From Myxococcales bacterium (GTDB taxonomy: Bacteria > Myxococcota_A > UBA9042 > JABWCM01 > BTVJ01), in the NCBI GenBank assembly GCA_045863395.1, contig BTVJ01000062.1, forward strand, positions 1 through 41,657: a DNA stretch of 41,657 nucleotides, written 5' to 3'. The first letter of the stretch is position 1. Each line of letters starts with the position of its first letter. A program made the position numbers and the translations under genes. Positions 28,030-41,657 of this stretch are shown piece by piece. The notes under the pieces were generated by a model that was given only the letters and a program-made list of their open reading frames with translations, did no database searches and was not told the origin of the DNA.

Positions 28030-31000
28030 ATGATGTTGCGCGGTTGGTCGATCACGTGGGCGCTGGTCCTGGCCCTCTCGGTGGCTGGGTGCCCAGACGA
28101 CGACGTCACCGGGGGCGGAGGGGACGTCGACGCCGAGGCAGATGCCGAAGGCGACGTGCCGGACGGGACGTCGGACGACGGCGGGGGCGGCGACGACATC
28201 CACGCGGACTCCGGGCCAGGGACGGACACGGGGAGCTCGGCGAGCATCGAGCTCGTCGCCCTCACGGCGGTCGGCGTCCGGGGCCTGGGCGTCGACCAGT
28301 TCGCGCTGACCCAGTTCGACGAGCCAGCCGCCTATGTCGAGAGCGCCGGGTATCAGATGGACCTCCAGGCGCGCGCGCTGGGCCTGCCCAAGGCGACCCC
28401 CGTGACCCTCACCATCGACGGCGTGGACAAGGGGACTGCCTCCCTGGACGCCAACGTCACCAACTTCCCGGAGGTGACGCTGACTCCGGGCGTCCACCAG
28501 ATCAAGGTGCGGGCCTCCCTTGGGGGCCAGCTCATCGAGGACGGCAACACAGTGACCGTCGGGGTCGGCCCCTGCGACGTGACCGTCTCTCCTGGCCCTG
28601 CCGCCTGCCTGCTGACCGACGTGGATCCCGCCACCGCGGGCCTCCAGGTGACGTTCACGGTCGCGAACCCCAACAAGAGATGCACCCTGGCGTATCTACA
28701 GATCAACGGGCCCTCGGGGACCGCGCAGACGGCGCCGGTGGCCCTCGACGGGGACGGGGTGGCGACCATCACCGCGTCGCTGACCACCGACGACGTGCCC
28801 GTGAACACCGCCCCCGTGGAGGTGACCGCCGTTGTCACGTGGCCAGGGGTCGACGAGCTGACCTCCGCCAAGGTGAGCACCTACAAGATCGATACGCAGG
28901 CTCCCGCACCGACAATCACCACACCCTTCAAGCCGATCCTCACCGCAGCAGACGACGAGGGGGACCCGGCGACTCCCGGCATCTCCATCACCGTCAAGGG
29001 GGACGTAGCTGGCCTGTCCGCCGAAGAGCTGGACAGCCTGACGCTGACGGTGAACGGGGAGCTGCGAGGCACGACGTCGCCCTCCACCAACGGGAAGTTC
29101 CAGTTCAAGAACGTGCAGTTCGACGCATCCGGCGATTACACGCTGCGCGTCGTTGGTGTGGACACCTGCGGGCTCACCGGGTCCACGGAGCAGGGCGTCA
29201 CGGTGGACCTGGGCGCGGTGCCACCGGCTCCCGCGGTGGACCTGGTCGCGGTGACGGCGCAAGGCGTCAAGGGCGCCGGCGCTGCGACCATTCCGCTCGT
29301 TGCCGCGGACGAACCCGCCGCCTGGGCGGCGGCCGCGGGCTTCCAGATGGACTTCGAGGCACTGACGACCAACGTCCCCGCAGGCACCACGGTCACCGCC
29401 AACGTCGGCGGCGCGGTGCTCCAGGCGCAGACCGACGGAGCAGGCGCGGCCCGGTTCGAGGGAGTCAACCTCACCAAGGGAGACACGACGATCTCGGTGG
29501 GCCTCACCACAGGTGGGCAGACGGCCCAGGTCACGAAGGTGGTCTCGCTGGACATCGCGGCCTGCGACGTGCTGGTCGAGCCGGCGGGCGGCTGCCTGAC
29601 CGACGACGCGTCGCCCGCCCCCGGCCTCCAGGCGACGATCCTGGTGAAGAACCCGGACGGGCTGTGCGACACGGCGACCCTGACGGTCCAGACGGACACC
29701 GGATCCACCGAGCTGACGGCGACCCTCACGGCCGGACAGGCGAGCTTCCTCGTGACCATCGCCGCGGCCGGGGTGGACGACGTGACCCTGACCGCCACGG
29801 CCAAGGTGGAGTCGGGCGGCGACCCCTCACTCACGGCGCAGACCAACGCCATCTCGTTCCTCGGCGACGCGCTGCCGCCAGCGATCACCATCACCGAGCC
29901 GGCGAGCGCGACGGTGTCCACGACGGCGGACGCGGACGGCGACCCGAGCAACGGCCTCCAGCTCGACCTGGCGGGCACCGTTGCGGGCAACCACGCCCTG
30001 GACGGGCTGGCGCCGCTCGCCGTCTCGGTGGACGGCGTGGCCCAGGGCAGCGCGGCGCAGACCGGCGGCCTCTGGACGGCACAGATCACGGTGGCTGGCT
30101 CGGGCACCTATGAGGTGGCGGTCAGCACCGCCGACACCTGTGGCCTCGCGGCCTCGGCCACGCTCAACTTGACCGTGGTGGACGTACCCGCGCCCGCGGT
30201 CGACCTGGTGGCAGCGACGGCCAACGGTCCCGTGGGGGAGGGGGTGGACTCCATCGCCCTCGACGCCACCGACGAGCCCGTCACGTACCAGAGCACCCCG
30301 GGCTTTCAGATGGACTTCTCCATCCTGACGACGAACGTGCCGGAGGGAGTCGTCGTGACGCTCTCCGTAGGCGGGGCGACCTTCGAAGCGGCGGTCGACG
30401 AGAACGGGGTCGCCCTGGTCGGTGGAGTCGTGCTCTCCAAGGGCGCTCAGGTGGTGAGCGTCACGGTCTCCGTGGGCGGGCAGACCGCGATGGTGGAGAA
30501 GACCATCACCCTGGACGTCCCGGCGTGTGACATCGTGTTGGAGCCGTCCGTGGCGTCCTGCCTCACCGACGATGCGTCCGCGAACCCCGGCTTCCAGGCG
30601 ATCTTCACGGTCAGCAACCCGGATGGTCAGTGTGACGTCGCGGCCCTCGTCGTGACAGACACCGATGGGGCAAAGGTCACGCTCGGCGCGGCCCTGGTCG
30701 ACGGGCAGGCCACCTTCGTGGCGACGCTCGCGGCTGGAGGAGCCGACGGCGAGACGGCGCTCGTCGCAGCGGCCGTGGACAGCACGACAGACCCCGAGCT
30801 CGCGGCTCAGACCAACGAGGTGGCGTTCCCCGTGGACACCACGGCGCCGGTCATCGCCATCATCGAGCCCGTCGGCGATCTCACGACGGCGGCGGACCTC
30901 GACGGTGACCCGTCCAACGGGGTCCAGGTCACCGTCTCTGGCACGGTCAGCTCCGCGACCGCAGTGACCCTGACGGTGGACGGCGCCCCGCAGGGCGCGG

Positions 31001-34000
31001 CCACGGTCGACGGCGGGGCCTTCACGGGTGCGGTGACCCTGCCGGGCCTGGGCGAGCACGTGATCACGGCGACCGCGACCGACGGCTGCGGCCTCACGGG
31101 GGCAAGCGACGTCACGCTGACCCTGCTCCCGGTGCTGGTGCCGACCATCGAGGTGATCGCCTCCACGGCCAACGGCCCCCAGGGCGAGGGCGAGGGCACA
31201 ATCACCCTCGGGGCGAGCGACGAGCCGGCCGCGTGGCTCGCGACGCAGGGCTACCAGATGGACTTCGTCATCCTGACCGAGGACGTCGCAGAGGGCACGC
31301 CGATCACCCTGCTCGTGGGCGGCGCGGAGGTCCAGGCGCCTACGGGCCCCGGCGGCGTCACGGTGTTCGCCGGGATCAACCTGACCAAGGGCACCCAGGC
31401 CGTTGGCGCGTCCGTGACGGTCGGTGGGCAGAGCGCCACGTCGGCCAAGATCGTGATCCTCGACATCCCCGCCTGTGATGTGACCATCGAGCCCGCGACG
31501 CCTGCGTGCCTCACGGAGGACGCCTCCGGCGATGCGGGCTTCCAGGCGGCCTTCACGGTGCGTAACCCGGACGGGCAGTGCGACGTGGCGGGCCTGGTCG
31601 TGACGCGCACCGACGGGACGACGGCGACCCTGACGGCCCCCCTGGTCGGCGGTCAAGCCGCTTTCGTGGCGACGCTTGCCCTCGGGGCCGCGGACGGCGA
31701 GACCGCCAAGGTCGCGGCCTCGGTGGACAGCACCCTCGACGGGGGCCTCTATGCCCAGACCGGCGAGGTCGCGTTCGCCGTGGATGCAACGCCTCCCGAG
31801 GTCGCGATCACGACCCCGGCCAGCGACACGGCCTCCACCACCGACGACCTGGACGGCATCGCCGCCAACGGGGTCCAGCTAACCATCGGAGGGACGTCCA
31901 CAGGGGCGACCACCGTCGAGCTGTTCCTCGGTGGGGCCTCCCAGGGGGCTCAGACCCCGTCGGTGAGCGGCGCGTGGTCCTACGAGGTGACCTTCACGGG
32001 AGCCGGGACCTTCGCGCTCGCCGTGCAGGCGAGCGACGGCTGCGGGCTCGAATCGTCGGCGCAGAGGTCGCTGACCATCGCGGCGCCGCCCGTCGAGGTG
32101 GCGGTGCTGTCGCCGCTGGGCGCCTCAACCCTGTTTGCCAAGGGCGACGGTGACCCGGGCACGGCCCTCGTCTACGAGAGCACCTTCACGGCTTCGGTGA
32201 GCCTGCCAACGGAGGGCGGCGTCCTTCAGATCCAGTGCACGAGCGCCGATGCGCCCGGCCTCTACGTGACGGTGGGCAGCGTCACGCTGACCCAGACCGA
32301 CATCGACAGCGCCGTCGCCAGCGCGTTCGACGTGCCCGTCGGCATCGACGTCGGGTCCATCGGCACTGCGAACACTCTGTGCCGCGCCACCTACGAGCTT
32401 GGCGACCTGTGGCAGAGCGATCCTGTGCTGATCATCGTGGCGCTCCCCGCGCCCAGCTTGGTGATCGCCGCGCCGGTGGCCGGCTGGGCGACCAGCTCAC
32501 TCGCAGTCCCCGCGTCGCTGTTCGCGCAGCACCTGGACGGGGTCACGCCCGTCGTCGTCCTCGCCGACAGCGACGGGACACCGGTGGGAGACCCGATCAC
32601 CCCGGACCCCATCGACGGCGGGGCGCTGGCCTTTGAGGTCTCCCTGACGCAGGGCGGCGCGCCTCTGCCCGACGGCGCCTACACCCTGTTCGTGGACGCG
32701 ACCGACGCCTTCGGGAACCTGGCTTCCGAGCAGGCCGGCGCCGTGACGGAGGTGACCTTCACCCTGGACACGGCGGCCCCGAGCGTGACCATCACGGCGC
32801 CGAAGCCGCTCCTCCAGCCCCAGATCGTCGCGGAGGACGCGGACGAGGACGAGGCCAAGCCGGGCTATCAGACCACCGTGACGGTGACGGTGGGCGCGAG
32901 CGAGCCGATGGAAACCATCGAGGTGTGCCTGACCGTGGGCGCCGCCGCACCCGCCTGCCAGACGCCCACCGCCGGGTCCAGCGAGGTCAGCTTCTCTGGC
33001 GTGACCCTGGTGCCTGGGGCCAACGAGCTCTCCGTCTCCGCCGCCGACCCCCTTGGGAACGTCGGGACGGCAGAGCAGACGACGACCCTGGAGCTGGACG
33101 CACCCGTGGTCGTCATCACGAGCCCGGCGGACGGTGTCTTCGTGACGGTCGAGGCCATCGACGTAGTGGTGACGGTCGCGGACGGCGACGGCACGCCGAT
33201 CCCGGGGGCCGACGTGGAGCTGCTCATCGGCGGAGTGTCGTCGGGCGTCGCCGGCACGGAGGATCCGGCGGGCACCTGGACCTTCGCTGCCGCTCCCCTG
33301 GCCGCGGGTCCCAACGAGCTCCAGGTGACCGCCACCGCAGCGGGCGTGTCCGGGGCCAGCGCTTCGATCACCGTCAACCGCAAGACGACGCTCCCGTCCA
33401 TCGGCATCACCCTGCCGACGGACCTTCAGACCCTGAACCTGGCGTCCACCGTGTGCCAGACCGGCGTCACGCCCTGCATCCTGGACGTCCAGGCGCTCGT
33501 GGAGAACGTCGCCGATGGCGTCGAGACCACCCTGACCGTCGACTGTGGCGCCCCGGACACGTTCGTGAGCGTGGTGGCGAGCGGGACGAGCACCTGGGCG
33601 GGCATCGTCCTCCCCCACCAGTCCACGTGCTCGCTCAAGGCCAGCGTCGTGGACCTGGCGGGGCAGCCTGCGGAGAGCGCCTGGATCACCGTCTCCGTGG
33701 ATCGGGTGGCGCCGGTGCTCCTGTCCTTCCCGAAGCCGACCGGCGACGTGATCCAGCCCACGGCGGACGAGGAGGTGCTGGTCCCCGGCGTGCAGAAGAA
33801 GGTCCAGGTCAACGTCCGCGGCGTGGAGCAGGGCCGGGTCATCCAGGTCCGCGTGTACCCCGAGGGCACCGACCCGAGCACCGTGGCCCCGACGCTCTTC
33901 GGGGCCGCGCAGACCGCCGTGTCGGACACGGGGACCCTCACCGTGGAGGTGGGGACCCTCAGCATCACCACCAACGGCTTCTGGGTCCTTCAGGCGGATG

Positions 34001-37000
34001 TGATGGACGCGGCGGGCAACCCGGCTGCGTCGCTGTTGCGAACCATCTACTTCAACGTGACGGCGCCGGTCGTCAGCATCGTGAGCCCGACCAACGTGGA
34101 GCCGGTGGCTTGCACGGTGAACGCCAACTGCGGCCCGGCGGGGATCTGCAACGACGGCAAGTGCGCCGTCCCCTGGGGCATGAACGCGACGCGCTCGGTG
34201 CTCCTGCAGCTCACAGGGATCGCGTTCGGCACCGACAACCTCCGGCTGTGCACGAACAACCCAGGAAACGGCGGCTCCCCCTGCGCGACGGCAGGCTTCA
34301 CGGTGGCGAAGATCGGCAACGCGACCAGCAACTCGGTCTCACTGGACGCCTCGGCGCTCGGCGATGGTCTGCACCGCATCATCGCGGAGGCAGAGACCTT
34401 CCCGGGCGACGGAGACTGGGCCTCGTCGCTGGTGACGGCGGGAGCGGGCCTGAAGGAGCGAACAATCTTCATCGACACCGTGGCGCCCGTGGTCACGCAG
34501 ATCACCAGCACCTCCGACACGCTGCCCCCGGCGTTCGTGCTCAACCAGGCCGAGCAGGTCTCCCCGAGCACCTTCGCCTTCGCGGTCACGGCTACGGACA
34601 ACGGCCTCCCAGCGAAGGGCACGCTGGAGGTGTACGCCAATGCCGGGTTCAAGGTGAACCTCCCCATCACGGCGGGAACCGCGTCCGGCAATGTCAACTT
34701 CACGGCCGACGGCGTGAAGAAGATGCAGGCGGTGGTCCGTGACACGGTCGGCAACACCAGCCTCCCCATCGCGAACGCCGCCGCATACTCCGTCAACTAC
34801 ACGGTGAAGGTGGCCCCGCTGACGCTCACGTTCCTCGCGCCGACCAAGTCGCCGCTGCTGGCTGGCGACTCCCGCGCCGTGTCACTGAGCAGCAACCAGA
34901 CCTCAGGGACGGTCGCGATCCTCGACGGCGGGGTCGAGGTGGCCTCCAAGGCGATCGGGGCGGACGGGACCGTCCTGTTCGACCACGCCACCTACGGCAT
35001 CCTCTCGGACGGGGCCCACGAGCTGACGGCCGTCCTCACCGACACGGCCAACAACACAGCTCAGGCGGCGACCGAGCCGGCGGTCATCACGGTCGATACG
35101 GAGCCGCCGACGGTGGCGCTGGCCGCACCAGTGACAGGAGCCCTGACCGACGCCGACGACGCCGCGCCGACCACGGGCGGGTTCCAGGTGGCCGTGGAAT
35201 TTGCCACGGGCGAGGCGTCGTCGTGGAAGATCCTGCTCCAGAGCGGGTGCACGGCGGCCTTCACCGGCTGCGGCGCCGCAGTGACGGTTGCCTCTGGCGC
35301 CATCTCCAACCCGGGCGGGTCGGAGCCGGTCAAGGTGATCACGCTGCCGATCACTGCGGGGGACACCTGGCACAAGGTGACCGTCGAGGTGAGCGACGCG
35401 GTCGGCAACAAGGCGACGGCGACCGCGGACGTTCAAGTGACGCTCGCCGCCTGCGTGGTGAGCTTCACGAACCTCCCGCTGGACGGCACCTACAACGGCG
35501 ACGACTGCGCGGCACCGGGGTGCACGAGCATCGATGTGAACCTTGGCGTGCAGTTCCTGGGCCCCTGCAACGGGGTAGACACCCTGACGCTCTACAAGGA
35601 TGGGGTGCCCGTGGGCCAGGCGACGGACCTCGCCACCCAGGAGGCGACCTTCCCCCTCACTCTCAGCGATGGTGAGGTGTTCACCATCTGGGCGGAGCTG
35701 ACCTCGGGTGGGGGCCTGGTCGCTGAGACCGGCAACTTCGATGTCGTGGTGGACCTGATTGATCCGGAGGTGGCCTTCACGGCCGCGACGGTCCTGGGCT
35801 TCCAGACGCCGGCGACCGGCGCCTCGATCCAATGGGGCCTGGCGGCCGACCAGACGCCAGGCTCCACGTCCACCCTCGAGGTGCACATGCGGGTGACCGT
35901 CACGGGCGGTGCCTCTGGGCAGATCGTCGCGCTCACGGCCACCGGCCCTGGCGGGACGACCGCGCTTGCGGCGGGTGAGACCCCCGTTGCGGTGACGGGC
36001 ACCCCGTTCGTCCACGACTTCAAGTTCGTCTCCATCCCCGACCAGGGGGTCTACACGGTGGTCGTGACCGTGGCGGACGGGGCAGGCAACCAGGCGTCGT
36101 CGTCGTTCCAGGCGACGGTGGACATCTCCCCGCCCGAGGAGGTGATCATCGAGCCCATCGATGCGCTGCTCGACGTGGTGCCGCGCCTGCCCGCGGTGAC
36201 CCTGAAGTGGCAGCCGCCGTCGTCCAACACTGGTGTCCCGGGCGGGCCGGCCAGTTCCTACGAGATCCGGTACTCCTCCGAACCCATCGCCACGGACGCG
36301 GATTGGGCCGACGCGTGCCCCGTCGCGGCGCTTCCCTTCGTCGCCCCGACCCCTGCGCCGGGCGACCCCGACGGCGCCGCATTGGATACCTACGTGGTGA
36401 GGGGTCCCGACCCCCGCTCCATCAACACCAACGCCGCGTGCAAGTTCGCGGTGCAGCCCGACGCAAAGGGTTGGTACTTCGCGATCCGCGCTACGGACGC
36501 GGTGGGCAACCAGTCCCCGGTGACGGGGACCGGCGCCGCCTTCACGGACGCCGCGAGCCTGAGCTACGCGAAGATCACCCACACCGTGGCCGCGCCCATG
36601 GGCAACGAGGTGCGCCTGGAGGACAAGGTCTGGGCCATCGGCGACATCAACGACGACGGCTACGACGACCTGGCGGTCGGCGGCCAGGACATGAGCGGCT
36701 TCTGCATCGTCTACGGGCACGACAACGGGGGCGACCCCCTGGCGGACGTGGCGCTCGCGGCGACCAGCGGCACGAACTACCAGTGCATCTTCGACGCAAC
36801 GCCAACGGCCCTCGGCTTCCCCATCGCGCGGGGTGGCGACATGAACGGCGACGGGCTCCCAGACCTGATCGCGGGCGCGGGCATCAAGCTCGGCGCCAAC
36901 CTCTACCCCGAGGAGGTGCGGGTGTACCTGGGCGTCACGGGAGGAGGTCAGATCGACCCAGTGCCCGTCCTGACGGTCAAGGGCACCACCAACAACGCGA

Positions 37001-38013
37001 TCTTCGGCCTCAAGAACATCGCCTCGGCGGGCAACTTCAACGGGGACGTCCACAGCACCACAGGACTACCCATCGAAGATCTGATCATTCCGAGCGGCAT
37101 CGGCAACAAGGTCTTCATCGTGCCCGGCAGCGAGGCCTTCGTGCCCGGATCATCGACGACAATCAACGTGACCAGCGCGACCGACCGCGCGGCGTGGGAC
37201 GTGGTGACAGTGACCGTGAGCGGCGCCCAGGGGAACTCCTACTTCGGTTGGTGCGTCGAGGGCGCGGGCAACATCCTGACGGATGTGGGCTCGTCCCAGT
37301 ACGACGACGTGCTCATCGCCATGGCCAAGGATCCAGCCCAGGTCATCCTGCTGAAGGGGCGCCCGGTGAGCGGAGACACGGTGATCCCCCTGTCCAACTC
37401 CAACAGCGGCGCACAGGCGGGCGACGCGACCGCCGTGCGCCTGTTGCCCGAGCTGGGCGTCGGCACCAACTCCTTCGGTGCGGACCTGGGCGTCCGCCGC
37501 GACCTGGACGGAAAGGGGACGCCGGACATCGTCATCAACCACCAGTACGCGAGCGCGACCGTCGGGCGCATCTACACGTTCTTCGGCGAGAAGCTGACCG
37601 GCAAGGAGGGCCTGTCCGTCTCCGTGCAGCCGTCTGGCCCTGCGACGGTGGATGGCGCGCAGGCGGGCCTCAACGGCGTCATGTACCAGAAGCAGCAGCA
37701 CTACGCCTGGCCGCTCGGCGACTTCGACGGCTCGCTCTTCGGAGAGCAGAGCACGGTGGACCTGGCGTACAGCGTCTACAGCTTCTCGTCCTACGGAAAG
37801 GTGACCATCCGCCTCAACCACGCGAGCGGCGCCCCCGGCATGGTGGAGGGGCTGCTGCCCTTCGAGGACGTCGTCATTCGCGACCCCTACACCGAGCCCC
37901 CGTCCGACAAGTTCGGCATCACATGGGCGCCCATCGGTGACTTCAACGGAGACGGCCTGCCGGACCTGCTGGTCGGGACCAACGGCATGGGCTGGGCAGT
38001 CCTGGTGTACTGA
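28030..38013 (+). CDS. Giant (3327 aa) surface lipoprotein/adhesin: Ig-like repeats, FN3-like domain, C-terminal FG-GAP beta-propeller
   Basis: GGAGGAGG RBS, ATG 28030, lipobox VAGC; many 'D..GN' and 'DT.AP.V.I..P' Big-like motifs; FN3-like 'LKWQPP..SYEIRYS..WYFAIRATD..GNQS'; FG-GAP 'GDINDDGYDDLAVG', 'GDMNGDGLPDL', 'GDFNGDGLPDLLVG'. Confidence 0.85.
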   Translation: MMLRGWSITWALVLALSVAGCPDDDVTGGGGDVDAEADAEGDVPDGTSDDGGGGDDIHADSGPGTDTGSSASIELVALTAVGVRGLGVDQFALTQFDEPAAYVESAGYQMDLQARALGLPKATPVTLTIDGVDKGTASLDANVTNFPEVTLTPGVHQIKVRASLGGQLIEDGNTVTVGVGPCDVTVSPGPAACLLTDVDPATAGLQVTFTVANPNKRCTLAYLQINGPSGTAQTAPVALDGDGVATITASLTTDDVPVNTAPVEVTAVVTWPGVDELTSAKVSTYKIDTQAPAPTITTPFKPILTAADDEGDPATPGISITVKGDVAGLSAEELDSLTLTVNGELRGTTSPSTNGKFQFKNVQFDASGDYTLRVVGVDTCGLTGSTEQGVTVDLGAVPPAPAVDLVAVTAQGVKGAGAATIPLVAADEPAAWAAAAGFQMDFEALTTNVPAGTTVTANVGGAVLQAQTDGAGAARFEGVNLTKGDTTISVGLTTGGQTAQVTKVVSLDIAACDVLVEPAGGCLTDDASPAPGLQATILVKNPDGLCDTATLTVQTDTGSTELTATLTAGQASFLVTIAAAGVDDVTLTATAKVESGGDPSLTAQTNAISFLGDALPPAITITEPASATVSTTADADGDPSNGLQLDLAGTVAGNHALDGLAPLAVSVDGVAQGSAAQTGGLWTAQITVAGSGTYEVAVSTADTCGLAASATLNLTVVDVPAPAVDLVAATANGPVGEGVDSIALDATDEPVTYQSTPGFQMDFSILTTNVPEGVVVTLSVGGATFEAAVDENGVALVGGVVLSKGAQVVSVTVSVGGQTAMVEKTITLDVPACDIVLEPSVASCLTDDASANPGFQAIFTVSNPDGQCDVAALVVTDTDGAKVTLGAALVDGQATFVATLAAGGADGETALVAAAVDSTTDPELAAQTNEVAFPVDTTAPVIAIIEPVGDLTTAADLDGDPSNGVQVTVSGTVSSATAVTLTVDGAPQGAATVDGGAFTGAVTLPGLGEHVITATATDGCGLTGASDVTLTLLPVLVPTIEVIASTANGPQGEGEGTITLGASDEPAAWLATQGYQMDFVILTEDVAEGTPITLLVGGAEVQAPTGPGGVTVFAGINLTKGTQAVGASVTVGGQSATSAKIVILDIPACDVTIEPATPACLTEDASGDAGFQAAFTVRNPDGQCDVAGLVVTRTDGTTATLTAPLVGGQAAFVATLALGAADGETAKVAASVDSTLDGGLYAQTGEVAFAVDATPPEVAITTPASDTASTTDDLDGIAANGVQLTIGGTSTGATTVELFLGGASQGAQTPSVSGAWSYEVTFTGAGTFALAVQASDGCGLESSAQRSLTIAAPPVEVAVLSPLGASTLFAKGDGDPGTALVYESTFTASVSLPTEGGVLQIQCTSADAPGLYVTVGSVTLTQTDIDSAVASAFDVPVGIDVGSIGTANTLCRATYELGDLWQSDPVLIIVALPAPSLVIAAPVAGWATSSLAVPASLFAQHLDGVTPVVVLADSDGTPVGDPITPDPIDGGALAFEVSLTQGGAPLPDGAYTLFVDATDAFGNLASEQAGAVTEVTFTLDTAAPSVTITAPKPLLQPQIVAEDADEDEAKPGYQTTVTVTVGASEPMETIEVCLTVGAAAPACQTPTAGSSEVSFSGVTLVPGANELSVSAADPLGNVGTAEQTTTLELDAPVVVITSPADGVFVTVEAIDVVVTVADGDGTPIPGADVELLIGGVSSGVAGTEDPAGTWTFAAAPLAAGPNELQVTATAAGVSGASASITVNRKTTLPSIGITLPTDLQTLNLASTVCQTGVTPCILDVQALVENVADGVETTLTVDCGAPDTFVSVVASGTSTWAGIVLPHQSTCSLKASVVDLAGQPAESAWITVSVDRVAPVLLSFPKPTGDVIQPTADEEVLVPGVQKKVQVNVRGVEQGRVIQVRVYPEGTDPSTVAPTLFGAAQTAVSDTGTLTVEVGTLSITTNGFWVLQADVMDAAGNPAASLLRTIYFNVTAPVVSIVSPTNVEPVACTVNANCGPAGICNDGKCAVPWGMNATRSVLLQLTGIAFGTDNLRLCTNNPGNGGSPCATAGFTVAKIGNATSNSVSLDASALGDGLHRIIAEAETFPGDGDWASSLVTAGAGLKERTIFIDTVAPVVTQITSTSDTLPPAFVLNQAEQVSPSTFAFAVTATDNGLPAKGTLEVYANAGFKVNLPITAGTASGNVNFTADGVKKMQAVVRDTVGNTSLPIANAAAYSVNYTVKVAPLTLTFLAPTKSPLLAGDSRAVSLSSNQTSGTVAILDGGVEVASKAIGADGTVLFDHATYGILSDGAHELTAVLTDTANNTAQAATEPAVITVDTEPPTVALAAPVTGALTDADDAAPTTGGFQVAVEFATGEASSWKILLQSGCTAAFTGCGAAVTVASGAISNPGGSEPVKVITLPITAGDTWHKVTVEVSDAVGNKATATADVQVTLAACVVSFTNLPLDGTYNGDDCAAPGCTSIDVNLGVQFLGPCNGVDTLTLYKDGVPVGQATDLATQEATFPLTLSDGEVFTIWAELTSGGGLVAETGNFDVVVDLIDPEVAFTAATVLGFQTPATGASIQWGLAADQTPGSTSTLEVHMRVTVTGGASGQIVALTATGPGGTTALAAGETPVAVTGTPFVHDFKFVSIPDQGVYTVVVTVADGAGNQASSSFQATVDISPPEEVIIEPIDALLDVVPRLPAVTLKWQPPSSNTGVPGGPASSYEIRYSSEPIATDADWADACPVAALPFVAPTPAPGDPDGAALDTYVVRGPDPRSINTNAACKFAVQPDAKGWYFAIRATDAVGNQSPVTGTGAAFTDAASLSYAKITHTVAAPMGNEVRLEDKVWAIGDINDDGYDDLAVGGQDMSGFCIVYGHDNGGDPLADVALAATSGTNYQCIFDATPTALGFPIARGGDMNGDGLPDLIAGAGIKLGANLYPEEVRVYLGVTGGGQIDPVPVLTVKGTTNNAIFGLKNIASAGNFNGDVHSTTGLPIEDLIIPSGIGNKVFIVPGSEAFVPGSSTTINVTSATDRAAWDVVTVTVSGAQGNSYFGWCVEGAGNILTDVGSSQYDDVLIAMAKDPAQVILLKGRPVSGDTVIPLSNSNSGAQAGDATAVRLLPELGVGTNSFGADLGVRRDLDGKGTPDIVINHQYASATVGRIYTFFGEKLTGKEGLSVSVQPSGPATVDGAQAGLNGVMYQKQQHYAWPLGDFDGSLFGEQSTVDLAYSVYSFSSYGKVTIRLNHASGAPGMVEGLLPFEDVVIRDPYTEPPSDKFGITWAPIGDFNGDGLPDLLVGTNGMGWAVLVY
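28243..32090 (+). repeat. Four ~320-aa tandem modules inside the giant protein
   Basis: Units start near 28243, 29230, 30193 and 31141, each with 'DEP....G(Y/F)QMD', 'CD(V/I)', 'CL', 'G(L/F)Q', 'NP...C' and 'D.CGL'. Confidence 0.8.
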
Positions 38014-38042
38014 CGCGCCGAGGCGCGAGGAGCAGAGAGAGC

Positions 38043-38207
38043 ATGGAGCAGGAGCAGACCAGGCAGGACGACGGGAGCGAGCGGGAGGCCGACGACCGCC
38101 TCCCGTACACGACGCCACGCATCGAGTCGTCCGATGCCTTTGAGTCCTTCACACTCAACTCGTGCGGGCTCATCCCGGGCGGCTGCATGGACGGCACCAA
38201 CCCCTGA
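38043..38207 (+). CDS. Putative RiPP precursor peptide, 54 aa (MEQEQTRQDDGSEREADDRLPYTTPRIESSDAFESFTLNSCGLIPGGCMDGTNP)
   Basis: Translated by hand, below the ORF-track cutoff; GAGGAG RBS about 10 nt upstream; acidic leader with PYxxPxI motif; Cys/Gly tail; fills the gap directly upstream of kinase, radical SAM and peptidase genes. Confidence 0.8.
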   Translation: MEQEQTRQDDGSEREADDRLPYTTPRIESSDAFESFTLNSCGLIPGGCMDGTNP

Positions 38208-38239
38208 CCGGGTGCGTGTTCGGGCCCGAGACGACACCC

Positions 38240-39079
38240 ATGGACCGAGCGCGACGCGTGCTGGACCTGGGCCCGCTGCATGCGGAGGTTCTCGCTCCAC
38301 CGGCGCTCGTGGCGGCGCTCGCGAGGTACGCGGCAGCACCACCAGGCGGCGGGTCCCCGATGCGCGTGGAGCTGCTCGATCCGAGGGCCGGCGATGGCCA
38401 TGTGCCGCCCCCTCTCCCTTGCACGCCGGCGCCGGACGACCCCGCGACGCTGGTCGTCGACAGCCCGTGGTTCCGAGGTCACGTACGCAGGGGCGCCGAT
38501 CCTCTGACGCCCCCCTGGTCGGCATCCATGCAGCCCCTGGATCCCGAGGTGCCGCCGACGGGGCTCGAGCGGCGCGTGTTCGCCATGCTTCGGATGCTGA
38601 CGTGCATGAACGTGACCGCGCGAGGGGGCGTCGCGCTGCACGGCGCGACGGTTGAGCGCGACGGGCGGGCTATCGTCTTCGTCGGGCGGCGACGCGCGGG
38701 CAAGACCACGTTGGTGAGGAGGCTGCCGGAGGGGATGCGTTCGCTGGGCGACGACCTGGCCCTCCTGCTGCCGACCGGCGACGGCTTCGTTGCCCACGGG
38801 AGCCCGTTCACAGGACGGGAGCGTACGGCGGCCGAGCTTGGAGCGGCGCCTCTCCATCGAGTGTGCGTCATCGAGCAGGGGGAGCGCACCATCGCCACGC
38901 CCCTCGGCGCACGGGACGCGACGCGAGAGCTGCTGAGGCGGGCGTTCCTTCACGTGGACGCGCCGAGCGAGCGGCAACGGGTGGTGGACGCCACGCTACG
39001 CCTTGTGGCAAGAGTACCCGTGCTGCGAGTCACCATACACCTGGAGACGTCCCCGTGGACGCTGGAGGCCTTGTCATGA
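38240..39079 (+). CDS. HPr-kinase/PEPCK-like P-loop protein (ScmC/HprK-related)
   Basis: 'LHGATV', Walker A 'GRRRAGKTT', 'LGDD', 'HGSPFTG'; stop overlaps the radical SAM start. Confidence 0.75.
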   Translation: MDRARRVLDLGPLHAEVLAPPALVAALARYAAAPPGGGSPMRVELLDPRAGDGHVPPPLPCTPAPDDPATLVVDSPWFRGHVRRGADPLTPPWSASMQPLDPEVPPTGLERRVFAMLRMLTCMNVTARGGVALHGATVERDGRAIVFVGRRRAGKTTLVRRLPEGMRSLGDDLALLLPTGDGFVAHGSPFTGRERTAAELGAAPLHRVCVIEQGERTIATPLGARDATRELLRRAFLHVDAPSERQRVVDATLRLVARVPVLRVTIHLETSPWTLEALS

Positions 39080-40368
39080 GCCGGGTCTACGACATGGAGG
39101 ACAAGCTCCGCGCGCTGTACGTCAAAGACCATCGCCTGCTGAGCCTGCACATCGACCTTGCGCTCAAGTGCGACCTCGACTGCTGCCACTGCTACCTGGA
39201 CGACAAGCGGACGCGCGAGATGTCCACCGCCCAGGTGGTCACGCTCTTCGACCAGGCGAAGCGCATGGGCGTGCTGAAGCTCGCGCTGGGGGGCGGCGAG
39301 CTCTTCTTGCGCCGCGACGTGCCGGAGCTGCTCGAGGAGGCCCGCAGGCGGCGCTTCGCCATCGTGCTCAAGACCCATGGCGGCACCGTGTCCGACCGCA
39401 TCGCCGATGCGGTCCGCGACGCGGGCGTGGTGCGGGTCGACGTGAGCGTCTACGCGCTGGACTCGAGCATCCATGACGCGATTACCCGGCGCGAGGGCTC
39501 CCTGTCGCGGACGCTTCGCGGCATCGAGCGCCTGACCGAGCGGGGAGTGCGCGTGCGGGTCAACTGCTCGGTGATGCACAGGAACCGCAACCACTACAAG
39601 GACCTGTACCGGGAGATGGTCCGTCGCGGCGTCGAGTGCCAGCTCGACGGGTCCATCCACGGCACCCACGGCGGGACCATGGAGACCGCGGCCCTCAACC
39701 TGACGGTCGCGGAGAAGGCGGACCTCGAGCGCTTCAAGCACGACGAGATGAAGGACAGCCCGAGCCTTGGCGGGGCGGATCCCGACTTCCACATCTGCTG
39801 GGCGGGGAAGATCAGCGGCCACGTGGCCCCCGACGGATCCCTCACGCCCTGCGTAGCGTGGCCCATGCCCGTCGGCAACGTGCTCGACACGCCGCTGGAT
39901 CTGCTATGGAAACACGCGCCACTGCTGCAGGAGATTCGAGGGGTGCGGCGCAAGGACCGCGGCTGCGGCGGGTGCAGCTTCGAGCACCAGTGCAACTTCT
40001 GCCCAGGCAAGGCCTACGTGGAGAACCGCGGCGAGTGGCTGGCGCCCGCGCCGCTCCAGTGCGCCGACACCACGGGCAAGGTGTGGGGGATCCTCGCGTT
40101 CAACGCCTCGCAGGTGCACCCCGAGCGGCGGGTGGAGTTCCCCATCCTCAAGCCGGGCGCCCTCCACGCGGGGCCGGCGCGCGCAAAGGGGCAGCCCCGG
40201 CCCAAGCTCACGCCGGAGATGGTCGAGCGCGTCCCGCGTGAACAGACCGGGCGCCCACGGTCGAGGCTCTTCCGCATCCTGAGTGACACCGAGGTGCAGG
40301 GCGCCCGCGGCGACGGGTCCGCGGGGACCATGGAGCACGTGGCGCCGGTGCCTCGGGCGGCCGGATGA
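39076..40368 (+). CDS. Radical SAM/SPASM peptide maturase
   Basis: CxxxCxxC 'CDLDCCHC', GGE motif 'GGGEL', SPASM 'CWAG...DGSLTPC...GNV...CGGC....CNFCPG...C'; ATG 39076 in an ATGA overlap. Confidence 0.9.
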   Translation: MSRVYDMEDKLRALYVKDHRLLSLHIDLALKCDLDCCHCYLDDKRTREMSTAQVVTLFDQAKRMGVLKLALGGGELFLRRDVPELLEEARRRRFAIVLKTHGGTVSDRIADAVRDAGVVRVDVSVYALDSSIHDAITRREGSLSRTLRGIERLTERGVRVRVNCSVMHRNRNHYKDLYREMVRRGVECQLDGSIHGTHGGTMETAALNLTVAEKADLERFKHDEMKDSPSLGGADPDFHICWAGKISGHVAPDGSLTPCVAWPMPVGNVLDTPLDLLWKHAPLLQEIRGVRRKDRGCGGCSFEHQCNFCPGKAYVENRGEWLAPAPLQCADTTGKVWGILAFNASQVHPERRVEFPILKPGALHAGPARAKGQPRPKLTPEMVERVPREQTGRPRSRLFRILSDTEVQGARGDGSAGTMEHVAPVPRAAG

Positions 40369-40823
40369 GCCAAGAGCACGCGGAGGAGCACGCTCGGGTT
40401 GCACCCGCTGCGCTGGGAGACCTCGCCCGCCAGCGCCTGTCGCGGGGCGGCCCGTTCCGATTCTACGCCCGGGGGCTCAGCATGCGCCCGTCCATCCCCG
40501 ACGGGGCCCGGGTCACGGTGGCTCCACTTGGGAGCCGCAGCGTGAGGCCGGGCGACGTCGTGCTGCTGCTCGTAGGCGAGCGGGCGAGCGTCCATCGGGT
40601 CGTGGCGCGGTGGGCGGGCCTGGTGTGGACCAAGGGCGACCTGAACCCATGGACGGATCCTCCTGTGTCCACGGCGTCGGTCCTCGGGCGCGTCGTGGCC
40701 GTGGAGCACGGCGGGAGCCACCGACGTCTGGACCACACGGCCGATGGCCTGTGCGGGGTGGGCTGGGCAGCGCTCGCCCTCCTGGCGGGCCTGCGGGGCA
40801 GCCGATGGCCCGGTTTTGTTTGA
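40365..40823 (+). CDS. S24/S26 family peptidase (Ser-His type)
   Basis: 'GLSMRP', 'GDVVLL', 'VHRVV', 'TKGD', 'VLGRV'; ATGA overlap with the radical SAM stop. Confidence 0.82.
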   Translation: MSQEHAEEHARVAPAALGDLARQRLSRGGPFRFYARGLSMRPSIPDGARVTVAPLGSRSVRPGDVVLLLVGERASVHRVVARWAGLVWTKGDLNPWTDPPVSTASVLGRVVAVEHGGSHRRLDHTADGLCGVGWAALALLAGLRGSRWPGFV

Positions 40824-40926
40824 CCAGCCGACGGCGGCTGCCCATAATCGAGCGCTGCGCCGACCTCTCCCGAGATGGGTGCGCCCACGGGGGCGCCCGG
40901 GCGACCAACCAACGGCAAGAGTGAAG

Positions 40927-41657
40927 ATGCCCTGCCGCTCGCCCATCGCCGCTGCGCTCGCCGTGCTGATCGCCGGGACGTCAGCGTGCGCCACCCAGGA
41001 CGAGCAGATCCAGCGCCAGATGGAGCAGATGAGACGGGAGCTTGCCGAGTCGCGGCGCTCCAATGAGGCGCTGGCCGACCGCCTCCGCCAGATGGACGGC
41101 CGCCTGTCGCTCCAGGTGGATGCCACTCGGACGCCACCGCCGAGCGCTCCGCAGTACACCGGCGCTGTCCCCACACTGCCCGTCATCAAGGCGTCGCCGG
41201 CGGCCCCGGCACCAGCCGCAAAGTCGCTGGCACGCCCCAAGGGGGGGGCCCGACGCGTGGGCTCGAACATCCACGTCCCGGGCCAGGAGCCCTTGACGTT
41301 CCGGAACATCGACGGGGAGGGGCGAGTGGTGGGGGAGGACGGTGAGCCCGTCGAGCCGCGCCGATCCACGCTGCCTCCCCGTGAGCTGGATCTGCCTCGC
41401 GCCACGGACCTGCACGGCGCAGCGGCGGATGACGCGGACGACCCGCGGGAGGAGCCTGCGATTCAGGTGGCAGACGTCCCCCCGCTGCCGGTGGTCCGCG
41501 TCGGAGACCACGATGCGGCACCTCGCGCCGGTGGAGCGGTCGGTCAGGGTGCGACGAGGCGCACCCCGGGGAGCGCGGACTCCACGCCCCTCCCCATCGT
41601 CACCGCGCCACGGGAGGAGCCCCTCCCCATCGTCTCCGCGCCACGGGAGGAGCCCCT
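40927..41657 (+). CDS. Lipoprotein with N-terminal coiled coil and Pro-rich linker (possibly CpoB/YbgF-like); runs off the window
   Basis: Open frame from ATG 40927 (or GTG 40921) to the window end: MPCRSPIAAALAVLIAGTSAC-ATQDEQIQRQMEQMRRELAE...; lipobox TSAC; C-terminus not visible. Confidence 0.6.
   Translation, partial: MPCRSPIAAALAVLIAGTSACATQDEQIQRQMEQMRRELAESRRSNEALADRLRQMDGRLSLQVDATRTPPPSAPQYTGAVPTLPVIKASPAAPAPAAKSLARPKGGARRVGSNIHVPGQEPLTFRNIDGEGRVVGEDGEPVEPRRSTLPPRELDLPRATDLHGAAADDADDPREEPAIQVADVPPLPVVRVGDHDAAPRAGGAVGQGATRRTPGSADSTPLPIVTAPREEPLPIVSAPREEP
41587..41657 (+). repeat. 33-bp in-frame tandem repeat (PLPIV(T/S)APREE), at least 2 copies, truncated by window edge
   Basis: cccctccccatcgtc(a/t)ccgcgccacgggaggag at 41587 and 41620; a third copy starts at 41653. 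Confidence 0.85.

Follow-up and report, generated by a model that had tools for sequence, protein, structure and literature searches.

A conserved myxobacterial operon for the probable phosphorylation, sulfur-crosslinking and trimming of a small peptide

Clusters for linear polyphosphorylated peptides (LPP; genes lppA-K-B-S-D-N) were described in 2026 from Paenibacillus alginolyticus (PMC13381572). According to the portions of that paper available to us, the leader tyrosine of the precursor LppA stands at -16, the peptidase (S29/H68/D93) cleaves behind Thr-1 in a reaction that depends on the RRE (the recognition element of RiPPs, peptides made by the ribosome and modified after translation), and the kinase LppK phosphorylates Ser3; counted from the tyrosine, the cut lies at Y+15 and the phosphate at Y+18. 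The S3T variant of LppA was not phosphorylated. LPP clusters also hold an NTP_transf_5 gene; a relative, PsmN, is needed to place a hexose on a phosphopeptide (PMC6993621, accessible text). Both LPP and paeninodin clusters are reported to be patchily spread, and the authors state that neither peptide type has a known function and that no final products were found (same portions of PMC13381572). In the accessible text of two further papers, the AC1 cluster of CteB is held by three Cys with an open site (PMC10177961), and in the qhp operon, for quinohemoprotein amine dehydrogenase, a peptide that is thioethered by a radical S-adenosylmethionine (rSAM) enzyme, freed of its leader and exported becomes a subunit of a larger extracytoplasmic protein (PMC7876137). 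Here we analyse a stretch of 41,657 nucleotides (nt) from a Myxococcales bacterium (contig BTVJ01000062.1 of GCA_045863395.1; hereafter the window), which carries most of a conserved operon whose enzymes probably add phosphate and sulfur crosslinks to a small gene-encoded peptide and trim it.

An earlier note, made from the window's letters, had described four tightly packed genes near its 3' end as a candidate RiPP system. The four genes are real and lie where it placed them: open reading frames of 54, 279, 430 and 152 amino acids (aa) on the + strand, with a 32-nt gap after the first, ATGA overlaps at the other two junctions and a third-position GC content of 0.82-0.93 in all four. They are, however, only the 3' end of a six-gene unit, in the order RRE, giant lipoprotein with immunoglobulin-like (Ig) and FG-GAP repeats, precursor, HprK-like kinase, SPASM rSAM enzyme and S26 peptidase. 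We recognise six genes because the RRE gene lies upstream in relatives and the giant, peptidase, kinase and precursor genes map consistently. The giant gene's stop codon falls 29 nt before the precursor start.

28030..38013, + strand: giant surface lipoprotein, 3,327 aa (Pfam, structure model, start and ribosome-binding site, gene order)
38043..38207, + strand: precursor peptide, 54 aa (sequence, homologues)
38154..38204, + strand: predicted core L38-P54 (from the register with LPP)
38240..39079, + strand: HprK/PEPCK-fold kinase-like protein, 279 aa (conserved residues, structure model)
39076..40368, + strand: radical SAM/SPASM enzyme, 430 aa (Pfam, Cys conservation)
40365..40823, + strand: S26 peptidase of SEC11/SipW type, 152 aa (catalytic residues, profile matches)
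G000:C71:10287-10556, in trans in the source genome: discrete PqqD-type RRE (orthologues, operon position in relatives)

The survey of the class covered 107 genomes, and 76 loci were mapped (75 fetched plus the window), all selected by their rSAM gene. This enzyme has a single orthologue in 76 of the 107 genomes at E<=1e-40 with a single query, and profiles add about 14, some of them partial, for about 90 in total. Profile mapping of the 76 loci found the S26 peptidase in 76, the kinase in 75, the C-terminus of the giant FG-GAP protein in 75 and the RRE in 56. The earlier note had staked its reading on a conserved upstream peptide in homologous clusters, and a precursor is present in 75 of the 76 loci (72 by profile, 3 by motif), the sole locus without one being cut by the start of its contig. 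In 75 of 76 loci the giant gene immediately precedes that of the precursor, and the leader tyrosine lies no more than 250 nt from the giant's stop in 69 of 74. The cassette occurs as one copy per genome and is near-universally retained in the class, and in nine genomes (three genera, completeness 80-97%) searches for the rSAM, RRE, NTP_transf_5 and giant genes all came back without a match. There are two PqqD-family genes in the source genome. The stand-alone one, on contig C71, has orthologues in 75 of the 107 genomes; RRE and rSAM genes occur together in 62 genomes and on the same contig in 47, and in all 47 the RRE gene shares the strand of the rSAM gene and lies 8.06-10.9 kb upstream of it. 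In the source genome it has moved away from the operon. The second PqqD-family gene (L031:1372-2768, G000:C114) heads an ATP-grasp cluster divergent from a Cys-repeat surface protein and belongs to a separate RRE system.

Among nine loci of other classes fetched through the giant protein, eight have the giant gene directly before a precursor, together with kinase and rSAM genes. Another 40 loci were fetched through the rSAM enzyme. A precursor is present in 27 of them, of which 11 keep this gene order, eight show a second one, seven lack an adjacent FG-GAP gene and one lies at a contig edge. The second order (8 of 20 weaker-scoring loci) runs kinase, RRE, rSAM, FG-GAP lipoprotein (850-1,450 aa), precursor, S26 peptidase, with the FG-GAP gene still immediately 5' of the precursor. 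In two more of the 40 the rSAM gene is closely followed by an FG-GAP gene, and one has the enzymes with no precursor detected. A locus search from a single protein gave no match; one from an alignment gave five loci, all in Myxococcota metagenome-assembled genomes. Locus L150 (G294:C291) holds a facing pair of complete enzyme cassettes whose precursors differ, the giant gene being seen before only one of them. At another locus (L197, G150), NTP_transf_5, RRE-rSAM, kinase, S26 and ABC-2 transporter genes lie beside Wzc-/Wzy-like capsule genes, as in LPP loci, and no precursor was detected in this variant cassette. The kinase match is interrupted by one TAG in G025 (L201, C71:10030-10767) and split over two frames in G202 (L169).

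The 54-aa precursor frame is not a product of chance. Its landmarks are a leader Y22-x-x-P25-x-I27 of the RRE-binding type, Thr37 (Y+15), Ser40 (Y+18), Cys41 and Cys48, and when 212,607 stop-terminated frames from the genome are matched to a leader-plus-Cys pattern derived from homologues (it fits 54 of 74 class precursors), only the window precursor is picked out, twice, through a redundant copy on contig C145. Homologues also occur in 36 loci of other classes; NCBIfam has no family for any of 72 precursor members, and the precursor profile has no match in the PDB. In the 79 unique class precursors the anchor is Tyr or Trp in 78, Pro at +3 in 79, Ser or Thr at +7 in 76 and Leu at +16 in 68; Ser or Thr stands at Y+18 in 62 and at one of Y+18/19 in 77, compared with 15% elsewhere in the core. 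One class precursor (G001), left out of these column counts, also ends in a Cys-bearing core. The cores are highly variable (79 of 80 class precursors are unique), with Trp at 0.5% and Tyr at 0.6% in the class, and every one of the 114 unique cores contains Cys (1-5 overall, 1-4 in the class), 24 of them a single one. The 35 unique precursors of other classes have Cys at Y+18 in 30, Ala or Ser at Y+15 in 33 and Ser as the last residue in 25. Because LPP precursors are cut after Y+15 and phosphorylated at Y+18, cleavage after Thr37 is predicted, with somewhat better than even confidence, and phosphorylation at Ser40 with rather more. The predicted core would be LNSCGLIPGGCMDGTNP, 17 residues of 1647.7 Da (monoisotopic, unmodified), and an alternative cut two residues earlier, in the register of the F-E motif, would give a 19-mer of 1895.8 Da. 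We considered and rejected L-x-S-(G)-C as a lipobox, the precursor having no hydrophobic stretch (maximum hydropathy 0.57) and the first Cys ranging from Y+17 to Y+30.

With Pfam, the Radical_SAM and SPASM domains of the window proteins score above their cut-offs and Peptidase_S24 slightly below (23.1 vs 23.3 bits), and NCBIfam matches of the kinase, rSAM enzyme and peptidase are all sub-threshold. The kinase-like protein has His134, a P-loop at 149-157 (Lys155) and Asp171-Asp172; the His and Lys are conserved in 75 of 75 class proteins and the acidic pair in 71 and 74. Its structure model (pLDDT 88) matches PEPCK over its length (Z 14.4, rmsd 5.1, 239 aligned), while the match to HprK spans residues 129-279 (Z 11.0, rmsd 2.8, 116 aligned); a sequence search against the PDB gave no significant match. 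The rSAM enzyme combines C32/C36/C39 with seven SPASM Cys (241, 259, 297, 300, 306, 309, 329), has no fused RRE and is nearest to SkfB and PqqE among solved structures. Its Cys ligands are kept in 74-76 of 76 class proteins, apart from the last, which is Cys in 41 and His in 34. The 34 His-bearing proteins (C329 in the window) all belong to family f18, a clade-wide ligand swap at the second auxiliary cluster. The SPASM spacing is 18/38/3/6/3/20 vs 18/38/3/6/4/19 in CteB. The first auxiliary cluster, AuxI, is predicted to have three Cys, as in CteB, PapB and Tte1186, because no conserved fourth Cys precedes C241 in the 76 class proteins; ligands were assigned here by spacing, not structure.

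The peptidase has a Ser39-His77-Asp92 triad (Ser in 76, His in 75 and Asp in 70 of 76 class loci) and no N-terminal membrane anchor, its highest 19-residue hydropathy (1.47) lying near the C-terminus. Its profile matches SEC11A/C best in the PDB (E 5e-8), and it scores 29.9 bits against the NCBIfam archaeal signal peptidase I model (cut-off 51.85). The RRE profile matches TbiB1, TfuB1 and LppB (9x8z, E 1.8e-6), the lasso protein TbiB1 better than LppB. An NTP_transf_5 (LppN-like) gene is found in 94 of the 107 class genomes and near the cassette in ten fetched loci (4 of 76 in the class, 6 of 58 further ones). That of the source genome is on contig C33, outside the locus, behind a Glycos_transf_4 (WecA-like) gene, an arrangement repeated in 3 of 25 other transferase loci. 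The family is missing together with the rSAM, RRE and giant genes in the nine genomes mentioned above. In a first tally twelve genomes had NTP_transf_5 and no rSAM match, several of which later proved rSAM-bearing; G014 has it without the rest of the system.

The giant protein, 3,327 aa from a probable ATG preceded by the ribosome-binding site GGAGGAGG, has a lipobox with Cys21, an acidic linker, bacterial Ig-like repeats and a C-terminal FG-GAP beta-propeller resembling that of integrin alpha (about 36600-38010). Pfam Big_13 passes and FG-GAP is weak. The C-terminal domain model (pLDDT 89) matches integrin alpha (E 2e-10, TM about 0.45). Relatives are mostly 2,300-2,500 aa long and have lipobox signals, and giants carry about 30-55 Cys. 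Against 1.84 billion representatives the propeller profile returned only generic FG-GAP repeat proteins, which is uninformative, and a predicted complex of the propeller (residues 70-540 of A3) with the precursor scored 0.02, which is not evidence either way.

From the observed gene content, order, conservation, motifs and folds we infer the chemistry and the binding of peptide to giant as follows. We consider it moderately probable that the operon encodes an LPP-type RiPP pathway with an added rSAM step and that the pathway's product functions together with the giant surface lipoprotein. The discrete RRE, supplied in trans from C71, would very probably bind the Y-x-x-P-x-I leader, as the LPP and lasso structures suggest. 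The HprK-like kinase would then probably (poly)phosphorylate Ser40, by analogy with LppA Ser3. The SPASM enzyme would quite plausibly bind a core Cys at an iron left open in its three-Cys auxiliary cluster and form one or more Cys-to-carbon thioether rings. We are confident in assigning leader removal to the soluble Ser-His-Asp peptidase, and less so in Thr37 as its most likely site. The NTP_transf_5 enzyme encoded elsewhere might tentatively be credited with adding a sugar to the phosphate, and the odds are about even that the modified peptide leaves the cell to serve the integrin-like propeller as its ligand or as a small subunit. The most likely product is a phosphorylated, ring-containing peptide of about 17 residues serving the giant lipoprotein. 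A bolder version, which we regard as unlikely, would make it a lineage-specific, thioether-cyclised, phospho-glycosylated exported peptide loaded, tightly or covalently, onto the giant's integrin-like head, so as to give a bacterial adhesin, possibly one tethered to a surface glycan by the LppN-like transferase, a structural subunit that varies or a tag of identity. That transferase is lost together with the operon and, in the source genome, stands behind the WecA-like gene.

Several observations weigh against a peptide that is phosphorylated, crosslinked and paired with the giant. Related genomes are not independent observations. Ten fetched rSAM homologues have no cassette genes around them (L165, L167, L181-L184, L188-L190 and L196 are close homologues without kinase, RRE, peptidase or precursor); these may have scattered partners or a different substrate, and one lies 3' of an arginine-methyltransferase-like gene. 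No exporter gene lies within the unit, where class loci leave no room between the RRE and S26 genes; the flanks were not scanned systematically. F/Y-E occurs at Y+11/12 in only 29 of 79 class precursors and the LPP F-E-T motif is not kept in register, while ten class precursors have Thr at Y+18, whereas the corresponding S3T change left LppA unphosphorylated in the accessible text of PMC13381572. The link to the giant is also uneven. Seven of the 27 precursor-bearing loci fetched through the rSAM enzyme lack an adjacent FG-GAP gene; six of these genomes have no propeller match at 1e-30 (control 1e-130), and the seventh has partial generic matches only. Conversely, G065 (95% complete) has a giant with no rSAM or kinase match, and G060 carries a second giant without a cassette. 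A propeller tree (FastTree with a midpoint root, using 20 of the 76 class loci) gathers the first-order propellers in a single clade (0.95), which also takes in one short control fragment. Second-order propellers are placed outside this clade, amid unrelated FG-GAP controls; they also score no better than an unrelated, non-cassette FG-GAP protein of the source genome, and may therefore be unrelated recruits. The pairing is strong and not obligatory, and perhaps arose twice. Propeller-less cassettes in several lineages, giants without a cassette and highly variable cores would suit the same chemistry with the peptide acting alone, as a signal or antagonist, and the giant as a co-regulated, inherited neighbour. 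We think this improbable given that the giant gene sits between RRE and precursor, stays beside the precursor when the other genes reorder and is absent along with the enzymes in nine genomes, and given single-copy, near-universal retention in the class as opposed to the patchy spread reported for LPP and paeninodin in the available text.

The chemistry itself could differ. The rSAM enzyme might instead oxidise Cys or Ser to an aldehyde, decarboxylate, epimerise or couple carbons, and paired Cys might form a disulfide after export. The closest NCBIfam families are heme-biosynthesis NirJ2 and AhbD (127 and 115 bits; cut-off 500) and MftC, the last auxiliary ligand is often His, and cores have no fixed Cys spacing and no conserved acceptor, no residue exceeding about 30% at any Cys offset. 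Of the earlier note's Cys crosslink, phosphorylation and S26-type release, all three stand as the best available readings, but for that last reason the thioether is put forward conditionally. An internal disulfide is impossible in the single-Cys cores, yet Cys is never lost; cyclophane formation would need aromatic residues that are rare in class cores; and the predicted three-Cys AuxI resembles that of CteB, PapB and Tte1186 as accessibly described, so that we rate other chemistry as rather unlikely. Least probable, to the point of being remote, is that the enzymes modify the giant, with the S26 protein a dedicated SipW-like peptidase and the small frame encoding a chaperone or regulator. SipW-type peptidases do process dedicated surface proteins, and the giant offers its many Cys. 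SPASM enzymes can crosslink protein substrates (PMC13692751, as far as its accessible text goes). The giant's lipobox is, however, a signal peptidase II signal, the S26 protein has no N-terminal anchor, some loci keep the peptidase, kinase, rSAM and precursor genes in the absence of a giant, and the homologous LppS cuts a small precursor (PMC13381572, available portions).

Some features around the locus complete the picture. We rejected a true duplication of the cassette, contig C145 being a redundant copy of window 30828-41657 at 100% identity; C123 and C124 are likewise redundant (99.98% identity), and copy counts from the source assembly (G000) are inflated. A TPR lipoprotein gene follows the unit (40927-41657), which by its architecture we take to be CpoB-like; the contig breaks within it, at a tandem repeat of 33 nt, and the gene continues on C37. 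We rejected it as a member, since a DNA polymerase III delta gene or others replace it in many loci; a weak promoter-like site precedes it. Contig-level RNA libraries of three studies cover the locus, with single contigs spanning giant-precursor(-kinase); such contigs cannot show transcription, one run containing the whole stretch as a DNA-like piece, and were not used as support.

The operon offers a peptide family of unknown function a concrete partner, the giant integrin-like lipoprotein encoded within it. It also combines rSAM chemistry with maturation by a kinase and a signal-peptidase-type protease in one pathway, and behaves as an inherited cell-surface system, not a patchy antibiotic cluster. 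Its residue-level predictions (phospho-Ser40, a cut after Thr37, Cys41/Cys48) are testable in E. coli.

We found no description of the operon in the open-access literature, nor in the accessible parts of PMC10288494 and PMC7470986; a listing in genome-mining supplements or in the original TIGRFAM paper is possible. The main text of PMC13381572, in its available form, contains neither 'radical' nor 'Myxococc', and four Myxococcota peptidase rows in its supplementary dataset lie outside the studied cluster. Rows 174-175 of that paper's supplementary file 2 concern Chondromyces apiculatus DSM 436, a cultured strain in which an S26 peptidase (EYF04409.1) and a kinase-RRE fusion (EYF04406.1) are three to four accession numbers apart; the second gene order may be present there. 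The SynChlorMet, GeoRSP and HprK-related kinase A/B systems, for which no literature paper was found, resemble the operon, as judged by their NCBIfam models, in combining a PqqD protein with an HprK-related protein and a SPASM enzyme. The SynChlorMet-type resemblance drawn by the earlier note nevertheless falls away: all models score far below cut-off (ScmC, matched by the kinase, 49/125 bits; ScmD 18.7/100; ScmE 74.5/400; ScmF 80.3/400), the operon has one rSAM enzyme, not two, and the precursor matches no model. Nor do TIGR04352/TIGR04353 of HprK-related kinase A fit (26.5/200 bits; best RRE relative tested 20.1/35). The paeninodin and pseudomycoidin lasso pathways (PMC6993621, accessible text) likewise have an HprK-like kinase acting on a precursor Ser and a PsmN-type transferase, and the C-terminal Ser of 25 of 35 other-class precursors recalls PadeA and PsmA. 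As the earlier note had said, this is not a lasso cluster: the cassette has no cyclase (a family not searched genome-wide), and the B2 protease PF13471 was not found in the 97%-complete genome. The ranthipeptide synthases CteB, PapB and Tte1186 share the near-identical three-plus-four Cys spacing and a Cys-containing substrate; compared with ranthipeptides and sactipeptides as accessibly described (PMC10177961), the operon has no fused RRE, no CX3D or six-Cys motif and low sequence similarity, and it adds a kinase and an S26 peptidase. The qhp operon (PMC7876137, accessible text) offers an analogy only, a small modified peptide with a larger extracytoplasmic partner in one operon; the mapped unit has no heme subunit or conserved Trp, a different protease and an adhesin-like lipoprotein as partner.

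The closest characterised system is the LPP pathway, not SynChlorMet. Set against the available portions of PMC13381572, the likeness includes a discrete RRE, a Y-x-x-P-x-[VIL] leader ([Y/W]xxP in the class, with Y/W in 78 and P in 79 of 79) with Ser at Y+18, an HprK-like kinase, a soluble SipW-like Ser-His-Asp leader peptidase, a possible NTP_transf_5 partner, a variable core and association with surface or capsule genes. The operon works like LPP yet is not a member of it, having an extra enzyme, a different leader consensus and no exporter in the unit. The full consensus YxxPxVLxHQxIxFETxxS is not matched, HQ and an in-register FET being absent from class leaders; a SPASM rSAM enzyme (all 76 loci) and core Cys (114 of 114) are added, whereas the LPP product is linear and made without a ring-forming enzyme; a giant FG-GAP lipoprotein is enclosed; no ABC (MsbA-like) exporter lies in the unit and the transferase is mostly encoded in trans; and the operon is single-copy and broadly retained in Myxococcota. 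The cassette is real, conserved and uncharacterised, as the earlier note's proposal of a new RiPP class would have it, but not a wholly new class, because the kinase, RRE and S26 steps have direct precedent in LPP. Through the lineage swap between Ser at Y+18 in the class and Cys at Y+18 with a C-terminal Ser in other lineages, a single family connects the way LPPs are phosphorylated with that of paeninodin.

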